Source of the DNA: an uncultured delta proteobacterium
GTDB lineage: Bacteria; Desulfobacterota; Syntrophia; Syntrophales; UBA2185
Assembly: GCA_963729715.1 (NCBI GenBank)
Contig: CAVSPA010000006.1
Location: 384,001 to 448,000 of the forward strand
Length of the DNA stretch: 64,000 bases
Reading direction: 5' to 3'
This document shows, in pieces, positions 19,418 to 22,168 of the stretch. Below the pieces are notes generated by a model. It had not been told where the DNA came from. It did not search any database and saw only the letters and a list, made by a program, of their open reading frames with translations. The translations under genes and the position numbers were made by a program. Each line of letters starts with the position of its first letter. The first letter of the stretch is position 1.

Positions 19418-19954
19418 CTATCCCTGTGTGATTTTTTTCAGCTCCTCCGCAAAGATTTCGTATGTCTTGCGACCAAAAAGCACAAAACGAACCAGCCCAA
19501 TATCGGCGTGTTCTTTGAGATAATCTATGGCTGTTGTGAGGGCGATGTGTGCGGCTTCGTCCACGGGATAGCCATAGACGCCGGTGCTAATGGCCGGAAA
19601 GGCGACGCTCTTGAGCTTTTTTGCTGAAACAAGCTTGAGACTCTCCAGATGGGCGCTTTTTAAGAGTGCTGCTTCACCCTTTGCGCCGCCCTGGTAAACT
19701 GGCCCCACTGCGTGGATGACATATTTTGCCTTAAGATTTCCCGCAGTGGTGATAACCGCATGTCCTGTGGGACATCCTCCGATTTTCCGACACTCCTGCA
19801 TGATGGACGGCCCGCCCGCCCGATGTATGGCGCCATCTACGCCTCCACCACCCGCGAGTCGCGAATTGGCGGCATTGACGATTGCGTCTGTTTCCTCCAT
19901 TGTTATGTCTCCTTCAACAAGGGACAATATCAAATTGTTAATCCTCACTTCCAT
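19418..19954 (-). CDS. Macrodomain O-acetyl-ADP-ribose deacetylase (YmdB-like)
   Basis: GDIT, AIVNAAN, GGGGVDGAIHRAGG, HAVGP, FPAISTGVYGYP. Confidence 0.95.
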   Translation of the reverse strand: MEVRINNLILSLVEGDITMEETDAIVNAANSRLAGGGGVDGAIHRAGGPSIMQECRKIGGCPTGHAVITTAGNLKAKYVIHAVGPVYQGGAKGEAALLKSAHLESLKLVSAKKLKSVAFPAISTGVYGYPVDEAAHIALTTAIDYLKEHADIGLVRFVLFGRKTYEIFAEELKKITQG

Positions 19955-19957
19955 GAT

Positions 19958-21592
19958 TCAACTCCTTTCGGCAACGGGTGTTCCCTCACCATAGACGAGC
20001 ATCCGATATGCCTTTTCAATTCTGCCCCAGTTCTCCTCTCTGTCCATGGACCAATACCTGCCTATGGCGGAGACTACCTTTCCGAGATTGAGGTCCCTGC
20101 ATTTCTGTTCCACCATCTCTATATACTTGGCCCCGCTCTCCTGCAATTCTCCGCGCCTGCCGAGCATGGCATGAATGAAGACATCCCTTATTTCCTCCTG
20201 CTTCGCGATATCCATCAGGGCAAGAAGGTGATTGACAGATCCATGGGAACTGAAGAACGACACGATACCCATAATGTGTAGCGCCTTGCCGCTATCCTTG
20301 GCGTTACGTATGACATGCAGAAAAGCCTCATTATGAAAAAAAGATCCATCGGCAATGGACTGATCGATTTTCACCTTGTCGGATAAAATTCTTCTCCCCG
20401 ACCCTATGTGGAGGTGTCCGGCTTCAGAGTTGCCGACCGTCCCCGCGGAAAGGCCGACAGCTTCACCGGCAGCGGCAAGCAGCGTATGAGGGTATATTTT
20501 CTTGAGCCTGTCCATGGCGGGGGTGTTGGCGCGGGCTATCAGATTTCCCTCGCTGCTTTCATTTTCGCCCCAGCCGTCGAGAATCAGAAGCAGGACCCGC
20601 CGGGTTTTTTCCTCGGATGGATCGACGCGTCGCCGGGATGTTTTTTTTATTAGTGAATGCCCTGTCATGTACGGCGATTGGGGAATACCCATCAGCTCGA
20701 GAACAGTGGGGGCGATGTCTGCAAGCTCTCCTTGCTCGCGGAGGGATATGTCGCGATCAGTGTGCACGAGAATGAAAGGGACATGGCTATCTGTATGTCC
20801 TGTGTCGATGGTGCCGTCCGGATAGAGCCATTTTTCAACTGTACCGTGGTCGGAACTGACGATGGCGACTATCCCTTCTCTTGAAGCCTCGGCGATAATA
20901 TCGCCCATGCACGTATCCACGGCTTCGACCGCCTTAACGATGGCTTCTTCATTTTCTATGTGGCCTACCACATCGACATTGGGGAAGTTTATGAAAATGA
21001 AATGATAAGAAGGGTCGCGAATTTTTTCCTGGGCTTTTTCCGTGACGGCATAGATGGACATCTCCGGAGCTTCGTCAAAGAGGACAACATCTCTTCGAGA
21101 CGGAACGATGACCCTCTCTTCTCCCGGCAGGACTTCTGTGTTTTTACCGTTGAGGAAGAAGCCCACGTGACTCGCCTTTTCAGACTCCGTGATCTTGGCC
21201 TGTTTCAGGTTATGCCTTGCAAGGACTTCGCTCAGGGTGTCTTTGATCGCGCCCTCCGGCGGAAAGGCAACGCTAACGTTCAAATCCTTCTCGTATTCTA
21301 TCATCGTGGCAAAATGAAGAGTCAGGTCATTCTCCACCGGAAATTTGTCGAAGCCTGCATCCGTCAGGCTCTGGGTAAGTTCGACTTCTCTTTCTCCCCG
21401 GATGTTATAGTATATTACGGCATCTCCTTTTTTCAATCTTCCCACTGGCCCACCCTTACAATCAAACAAAACGAGGGGAGGGAATGTCTCATCATCTTTC
21501 CCATTCCTGTATGCATTTTTAACTGCACGAGACATGATAGACCTAATGCTTGCCATGGATTTTTCTCTCTTAGTCAATAAAGCTTTCTGCAT
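19958..21592 (-). CDS. gpmI: Cofactor-independent phosphoglycerate mutase family protein, circularly permuted
   Basis: iPGM motifs present but in swapped order: DETF/NIRGER/ESEK/NVDVVGH/SDHG/GHT/LADIAPT come first, then LILDGWG/GNSEAGH/GRY/MDR. Alternative start at 21556. Confidence 0.85.
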   Translation of the reverse strand: MQKALLTKREKSMASIRSIMSRAVKNAYRNGKDDETFPPLVLFDCKGGPVGRLKKGDAVIYYNIRGEREVELTQSLTDAGFDKFPVENDLTLHFATMIEYEKDLNVSVAFPPEGAIKDTLSEVLARHNLKQAKITESEKASHVGFFLNGKNTEVLPGEERVIVPSRRDVVLFDEAPEMSIYAVTEKAQEKIRDPSYHFIFINFPNVDVVGHIENEEAIVKAVEAVDTCMGDIIAEASREGIVAIVSSDHGTVEKWLYPDGTIDTGHTDSHVPFILVHTDRDISLREQGELADIAPTVLELMGIPQSPYMTGHSLIKKTSRRRVDPSEEKTRRVLLLILDGWGENESSEGNLIARANTPAMDRLKKIYPHTLLAAAGEAVGLSAGTVGNSEAGHLHIGSGRRILSDKVKIDQSIADGSFFHNEAFLHVIRNAKDSGKALHIMGIVSFFSSHGSVNHLLALMDIAKQEEIRDVFIHAMLGRRGELQESGAKYIEMVEQKCRDLNLGKVVSAIGRYWSMDREENWGRIEKAYRMLVYGEGTPVAERS

Positions 21593-21766: not shown

Positions 21767-22168
21767 GTGCTAAAACTAAGCAGAGAAAAAGATCCGGAAA
21801 ATATACTGCGCGAGGAAATGCTGAAGGAAAGAGCGGAAGTCCTTGGCCGTGCCGGTGAAAAGTTGGCAGCTGCTATTGATAAGATGAGAATCGTAGAGCA
21901 GGGTATTGATGAGCGGCTGAAGCGTTTCCGCTTCACTATGGAGAAATATGAGGGAAGAGGCGGCGATAACAAAATTGCTTCTTTGAAGCAGGAAATGATG
22001 GGGGAAATCAATCGGGAGATTACTAAATTCAACCGTGCCAGAGAGTATGCGAAGTTGAGATATTACTACCTTATTGTGACGAGAGAGGCTATGGGCATGC
22101 GTCGTCATCACTGGGTAGATGATTGGTACAGCATTCCTCCGAGGAAACCGCCGTTTCGGGACTTATGA
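21767..22168 (+). CDS. Hypothetical helical protein coupled to pcm
   Basis: 133 aa ORF whose stop overlaps the pcm start (ATGA); [12 protein letters not shown] motif. Confidence 0.7.

Follow-up and report, generated by a model that had tools for sequence, protein, structure and literature searches.

We confirmed that the gene at 19958..21592 of the window, by which we mean the whole 64,000-nucleotide stretch of DNA that was analysed, codes for a true natural circular permutant of the bacterial-type cofactor-independent phosphoglycerate mutase (iPGM, GpmI). It belongs to a widespread, apparently hitherto undescribed subfamily of circularly permuted GpmI proteins with a remodelled substrate pocket. 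The features referred to below are the following:

19958..21592, minus strand: circularly permuted GpmI-family gene; its longest ORF is of 544 aa and it scores above the TIGR01307 cut-off
20645..21535, minus strand: first part, residues 20-316, equivalent to 1EJJ ~216-510 by phmmer alignment, conservation and model superposition
20600..20644, minus strand: new linker, residues 317-331, connecting the two former termini (C to N); its length and sequence vary
19973..20599, minus strand: second part, residues 332-540, equivalent to canonical 5-213 by gap-free alignment and conservation
21386..21400, minus strand: RGERE motif (65-69) replacing canonical RxDR[AM]; the new Glu69 is at canonical position 265
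20426..20428, minus strand: codon of Ser389, equivalent of the nucleophile Ser62; Ser in 131/131 permuted rows
20147..20161, minus strand: GRRGE loop (478-482) replacing canonical DGRD[TVS]; Asp154 is replaced by Gly481
19418..19954, minus strand: macro-domain (O-acetyl-ADP-ribose deacetylase-like) gene, 3 nt downstream of the permuted gene

The ORF list and the translation gave a single unbroken minus-strand frame of 544 codons from 21592 to 19958, as the initial annotation had stated, and the GC3 of the gene resembles that of neighbouring genes. The start is probably the ATG at nt 21556 (Met13), yielding a protein of 532 aa. This codon is favoured because it has a purine-rich AAGAGAG upstream and agrees with the usual start of the homologues, typically 19-21 residues ahead of the xDET motif (81 homologues); Met1 is devoid of purine-rich upstream sequence. 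The motif order that had been described was also found. The C-terminal-type motifs (DETF, NIRGER, ESEK, NVDVVGH, SDHG, GHT, LADIAPT...MTGHSL) come first, and LILDGWG lies deep in the chain (residues 336-342, nt 20587-20567), ahead of GNSEAGH, GRY and MDR. The chain does not end at AYRMLVYGEG as proposed, since seven more residues (TPVAERS) lie beyond.

Searches of the PDB with phmmer matched residues 23-317 to residues 219-511 of the G. stearothermophilus iPGM 1EJJ (E 7e-60), and residues 332-538 to its residues 5-211 without a gap (E 2e-52). Such two-stretch matches were obtained with 11 of the 12 PDB sequences matched, with ~40% identity to bacterial GpmI in each half. The two matches in swapped order that the initial annotation had predicted for bacterial GpmI were thus obtained, and the alignment is not colinear. 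The protein scores 473.8 bits with TIGR01307 (curated cut-off 330.65), summed across two stretches in swapped order. Positions 62-251 of the Metalloenzyme profile precede positions 2-68 in the same frame, which bears out the claim that the junction of the old termini falls within the phosphatase domain. Similarly, the Pfam iPGM_N profile is split between both gene ends, with positions 134-217 at the 5' end and 1-133 at the 3' end, and the new termini lie within the transferase domain, also as claimed.

Within the transferase domain, the chain is opened at canonical residues ~213-218. The first part begins with the last stretch of that domain (R65=R261, R68=R264) and goes on to the larger share of the phosphatase domain (K139=K336, D207=D403, H211=H407, D248=D444, H249=H445, H266=H462), and the second part carries the equivalents D339=D12, S389=S62, H450=H123, R480=R153, R512=R185 and R518=R191. 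The parent chain is complete, without loss or duplication: the equivalent of the new C-terminus is canonical residue ~217, and that of the helix at the new N-terminus is ~216-219. The hallmarks of a circular permutant were therefore all found, namely swapped segments, the whole parent, one frame and conservation across independent genomes.

An AlphaFold (AF2) model built from 125 permuted sequences has a pLDDT of 93.5 and a pTM of 0.88; it supersedes a weaker model from 25 sequences (pLDDT 79.5). The prediction retains the iPGM fold, residues 18-317 superimposing on residues 214-505 of the S. aureus iPGM 4MY4 (Z 22.5, rmsd 1.9 A, 292 residues); the structure aligner is sequential and scored the larger half only. 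Sulfatase, NPP and alkaline phosphatase chains aligned solely within residues 114-406 of the model, and Rossmann-like chains, a common arrangement, over ~52-542 (Z 7-9), as expected if the host and insert domains are inverted. Both domains with the iPGM fold are thus present in the model, the phosphatase domain as one continuous insert (~113-403) and the transferase domain assembled from both chain ends. The phosphatase domain has become the insert because the chain is cut within the transferase domain. In iPGMs, the two domains close over two hinge peptides (PMC5382265), and both hinge regions appear to be distant from the cut.

The two parts are joined by a linker of ~14 residues, KKTSRRRVDPSEEKTRR, which is charged and in one frame with its flanks, as first described. 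Its dN/dS values of 0.9-2.0 come from 12-15 codons in six pairwise comparisons, and those of the two halves, in six pairwise comparisons, are 0.07-0.33; purifying selection acts on both. Over the linker, the window is identical in sequence to two Logan contigs (20566-20772 and 20576-20768), each from a different study, the first of which may be the window's own source. Linkers longer by ~45 residues, still in one frame, were seen in L118 (G116:C6:64371-66098) and in G473:C36:13567-15255. Flags for a stop inside the gene at four loci (L110, L111, L114 and L116) were considered as possible split genes, and none of them lies in the linker; one flagged stop that reappeared is the natural stop at the C-terminal end.

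We next considered the distribution of the permuted form. All 120 top homologues listed have the C-then-N order. When GTDB genomes were scanned with two clade motifs, 261 of 280 stretches were confirmed, and in all 80 loci listed among these 261 the match runs across the junction in one stretch. The listed loci are titled Syntrophales, Syntrophaceae, Smithellaceae or unnamed Deltaproteobacteria/Proteobacteria, and they include the complete chromosome of Syntrophus buswellii DM-2; S. gentianae is also a carrier (P0103; orthologue WP_093884734.1). In the window's order, 99 of the 201 genomes sampled have full-length colinear matches and 10 have partial or two-piece matches (at least 57% identity), making 109 carriers, so that permuted homologues in other genomes, anticipated by the initial annotation, are plentiful. 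The remaining 92 of the 201 comprise 38 genomes with a distant iPGM homologue alone, matched over one half, and 54 with none. In a phylum sample of 401 genomes, 19 full-length colinear matches from four families and one partial match across the junction were found outside the order. The 46 plasmid records matched all have less than 60% identity, and the 15 listed are two-piece matches. Distant iPGM homologues (32-37% identity, frames of ~550 aa) occur in many order-sample genomes of families f3 and f5, with the permuted gene or in its absence; they may be of the plant/trypanosomatid type.

To place the permuted proteins among their relatives, the halves of all sequences were rearranged into one common order before trees were built. 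The top 150 representatives (clustered at 50% identity) include 12 permuted and 135 canonical sequences. The permuted representatives extend down to 34-45% identity, as far as the canonical ones, and have one common cut. A FastTree phylogeny of 200 rows contained a 60-row permuted clade (support 98), with four D154-keeping permutants placed among canonical rows. An IQ-TREE analysis of 60 rows (19 of 64 permuted, 41 of 136 canonical; LG+G4), whose bootstrap had not settled, grouped the 15 D154-less rows at 100/100, and 18 of the 19 permuted rows together with one canonical row at 86/93. The free trees required 2-4 order changes, so that more than one origin, by repeated permutation at the same permissive cut site, is possible. 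Constraining all 19 permuted rows together was not rejected (p-AU 0.525), and one origin followed by remodelling of the pocket is the simplest reading. We infer that the permuted order is derived, since it is nested among canonical enzymes (with an arbitrary root) and since the related ApgM proteins of the host genome begin with the Asp-Gly strand. One deeper D154-less member is labelled Ca. Desulfofervidus auxilii. The D154-keeping permuted form is a small family, with five further sequences at 75-85% identity.

Some individual sequences stand out. P0187, in canonical order, falls near or among the permuted rows in the maximum-likelihood trees; it may be their closest relative without the permutation, a case of reversal or an effect of long-branch noise. 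P0244 contains a permuted Asp154-keeping stretch at residues 3859-4375 of a predicted protein of 5027 aa on a 15.6 kb contig, either a large fusion or a miscalled frame.

Circular permutation is classically explained by two standard models, tandem duplication with trimming, and fission with fusion (PMC3320104). No duplication intermediate was found among proteins of 953-2720 aa, which is weak evidence, and no N-C-N or C-N-C order among the top 150 representatives. The search for a split-gene intermediate among the loci examined was likewise a weak negative; a frame change in L154, a locus in canonical order, resembles a slip of one base. When metagenomes were scanned with P0129, an Asp154-keeping permutant, for the genomic context of this form, no permuted locus was obtained, 74 of the 80 loci being in canonical order and 6 having one half only.

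The catalytic centre is largely preserved. We take D12, D403, H407, D444 and H445 to be canonical metal ligands. H462 is described as another (bioRxiv 2024.10.28.619893). In the alignment to 1EJJ, all six positions are identical (D339, D207, H211, D248, H249 and H266), and they and the nucleophile are invariant or nearly so in 131 permuted rows. Nine substrate contacts are listed for iPGMs, S62, H123, R153, D154, R185, R191, R261, R264 and K336 (PMC3886921). Eight of the nine, including all seven basic ones, are kept in the permuted protein and are invariant bar one or two gaps in 121 rows. The ninth, D154, is replaced by Gly481, and the full set of nine is thus incomplete. Position 154 is Gly in 121/121 main-clade rows and Asp in 130/134 canonical rows; 6 of 271 proteins, fragments or irregular sequences, had been excluded before residues were counted. 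Asp154 is presumably the base proposed for the glycerate hydroxyl.

The main clade and the canonical enzymes are fixed differently at 16 columns, including position 154. The differences include D151G, G152R, D154G, D263E, A265E, D192E and V122S, as well as G409E and N447T near the metal site. A literature search on these pocket residues found nothing. Glu265 is present in 127/127 permuted rows that lack Asp154, in 0/4 of those that keep it and in 1/134 canonical rows, which makes Glu69 a candidate stand-in for Asp154. This covariation is a single evolutionary event on one branch, not a set of independent events. Four deeper-branching permutants retain DGRD; permutation is thus compatible with a canonical active site.

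The host genome codes for no canonical gpmI product, and a GpmA and two ApgM proteins are present (the latter at L002:1393-2622 (C4) and L003:1465-2673 (C5)), which answers the question raised earlier of other phosphoglycerate mutases (PGMs). The GpmA gene adjoins a pyruvate kinase gene. One of the ApgM proteins passes the threshold of TIGR02535, 'proposed homoserine kinase', and its gene directly follows that of homoserine dehydrogenase. Of the 201 genomes sampled from the order, 195 have ApgM and 53 have GpmA. Of the 109 order carriers, 107 have ApgM and the other two GpmA; outside the order, the figures are 20/20 for ApgM and 4/20 for GpmA. The permuted gene is the sole PGM candidate in 0 of 129 carrier genomes. 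A candidate beyond a single ApgM occurs at the same ratio in carriers (99/109) and non-carriers (82/92), and the occurrence of the permuted gene is unrelated to any shortage of other PGMs. In 22 carriers it is accompanied by a second, distant iPGM homologue; genome G354 holds both.

The macro-domain gene is probably co-transcribed with the permuted gene. It is adjacent in 76/80 and 5/7 order-level loci, and in 0/19 outside the order, where an apparent link was a clustering artefact that vanished on direct test. None of the recurring neighbours was recognised as glycolytic. Twelve wider regions outside the order, inspected by eye with three ORFs scanned, had varied neighbours and no recognised glycolytic gene. 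Scans for promoters and terminators stayed at chance level. A 133-aa ORF (21767-22168, plus strand), divergent from the mutase gene and upstream of pcm, has no Pfam or NCBIfam match and is conserved in 71/80 related loci. In family f43, the four regions L122-L125 each have a DUF72 gene within a few kb on the upstream side of the permuted gene, and in two regions the gene directly downstream codes for a type II dehydroquinase.

What does the protein do? We favour, with a probability of about 55%, that it is still a phosphoglycerate mutase, a two-metal enzyme with a phosphoserine intermediate that would act on 2-/3-phosphoglycerate as an extra isoenzyme beside GpmA/ApgM. The domains would still close on the substrate via the two hinges, and Ser389, assisted by metal, would take the phosphate and return it to the other hydroxyl of the reoriented glycerate. 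The permutation most likely would have happened once, in a normal Asp154-bearing enzyme; in a descendant lineage Asp154 would have been lost and Glu69 (position 265) gained, with Glu482 appearing later, and Glu69 or Glu482 would assume the hydroxyl contact of Asp154. Several observations count against a mutase: Asp154 is lost and 15 further columns are fixed differently, several of them near the pocket or metal site, and the gene is never the sole PGM candidate, is missing from 92/201 order genomes and has no recognised glycolytic neighbours. Mutase activity can only be inferred here, since Asp154 is lost and every carrier checked has other PGM candidates. The initial annotation had presented an unusual natural permutation of a core glycolytic enzyme; the natural permutation stands, although as a widespread subfamily rather than a one-off, and the loss of Asp154 and the presence of other candidates in every carrier checked qualify its description as a core glycolytic enzyme.

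The same observations make it quite conceivable, although it is not the reading that we prefer, that the main clade is neofunctionalised. It would have kept the metal/phosphoserine chemistry and act on another small phosphorylated carboxylate (phosphoserine, phosphohomoserine, phosphoglycolate or a bisphosphoglycerate, for example), or as a phosphatase or intermolecular phosphotransferase. The pocket changes are concerted and fixed, another PGM candidate is present in 129/129 carriers, with the second distant iPGM homologue in some of them, purifying selection persists despite this redundancy, and the GpmA of the host is the one encoded next to pyruvate kinase. Nevertheless, the seven basic residues gripping phosphoglycerate have all been retained, and no conserved neighbour indicates another pathway. 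PGM redundancy is common elsewhere (PMC2964296), and a single ApgM is the only other candidate in 10/109 carriers but also in 10/92 non-carriers. Since redundancy is common and ApgM near-universal in the order, co-occurrence says little. Functional coupling with the downstream macro-domain protein, for example to clear an ADP-ribose or phosphate-ester product, is improbable. The same-strand gene directly follows in nearly all order-level loci, here after a gap of 3 nt, but it is absent in 19/19 clade members outside the order, 17 of them with at least 700 nt of flank, and pcm, LysM/M23, CarD-like and DciA genes are equally syntenic within the order, so that the adjacency looks like inherited gene order. 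A catalytically weak or inactive protein retained for ligand binding or regulation could account for the lost Asp154 and for the gene never being the sole PGM; the conservation of nucleophile and metal ligands throughout the permuted rows makes this improbable as well. Finally, the metagenome-type assembly with its 6.5% contamination could raise the suspicion of a misassembly or a recent broken rearrangement, the artefact that the initial annotation had named as its refutation. This is scarcely tenable: the same order occurs in hundreds of independent assemblies and in the complete isolate chromosome of Syntrophus, the two Logan contigs cross the linker without a difference, the halves are under purifying selection, and GC3 is like that of the neighbours.

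Compared with known systems, the permuted protein and GpmI/GpmM (TIGR01307; PF01676 + PF06415; 1EJJ, 1O98, 4MY4) have in common the whole sequence content and the two-domain fold, and they are alike in Ser62, the six metal-ligand positions and eight of the nine listed contacts. In contrast to GpmI, the permuted form is swapped at ~213-218, with an extra linker of ~14 residues, and therefore does not run in canonical order; its phosphatase domain is continuous and its transferase domain split, the reverse of normal GpmI. Its motifs also differ (GRRG for DGRD, FFSSHG for DGGVHS and RGERE for RxDRA), and its gene lies outside any glycolytic operon. The metal-binding core is common to the archaeal-type iPGM ApgM (TIGR00306) and to other phosphotransferases of the alkaline phosphatase superfamily, the phosphopentomutase DeoB and PhpG, with weak profile matches at residues ~180-320, but the permuted protein is not a member of these families, reaching 39 bits against a cut-off of 320 for ApgM and scores also far below the cut-offs of DeoB and PhpG, which, like ApgM, are devoid of the iPGM_N domain. 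The two ApgM proteins of the host have the Asp-Gly strand near the N-terminus, i.e. the unpermuted order.

Known natural permutations include DNA methyltransferases, saposin/swaposin and transhydrogenases (PMC3320104). The rearrangement is alike, with the termini joined and the chain reopened elsewhere, but in the iPGM the cut is inside a domain and not between domains. A full-text literature search for a permuted iPGM, also in combination with the alkaline phosphatase superfamily, gpmI and Syntrophales, found no paper; subscription journals were outside its scope. The main text of a survey of PGMs in 702 bacterial genomes does not contain 'permut', and S. aciditrophicus is scored there, without comment, as having one bacterial-type and three archaeal-type iPGM matches (PMC2964296). 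The main text of the 2026 CIRPIN permutation survey is without mutases or alkaline phosphatase, and its supplement may list a permuted iPGM (PMC13552848).

A natural permutation within a domain of a hinge-closing enzyme of central metabolism is rare. JGI annotates as 'iPGM' the same proteins that NCBI names 'alkaline phosphatase family protein', and the permuted gene may be counted as a PGM without evidence in metabolic models of Syntrophales. The subfamily offers a natural series, from canonical enzymes through permuted ones with Asp154 and permuted ones with Glu265 to permuted ones with GRRGE, that separates the effects of chain order from those of the pocket. With it, one can test directly whether another acid can replace Asp154 and whether a new function became accessible through permutation. 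More speculatively, an ancient permutation followed, in the main permuted lineage, by stepwise rebuilding of the pocket (loss of Asp154, gain of Glu265 and lastly the GRRGE loop) may have given rise to a new phosphotransferase or phosphatase beside the ordinary mutases of syntrophic and related anaerobes; living intermediates are known for each step.
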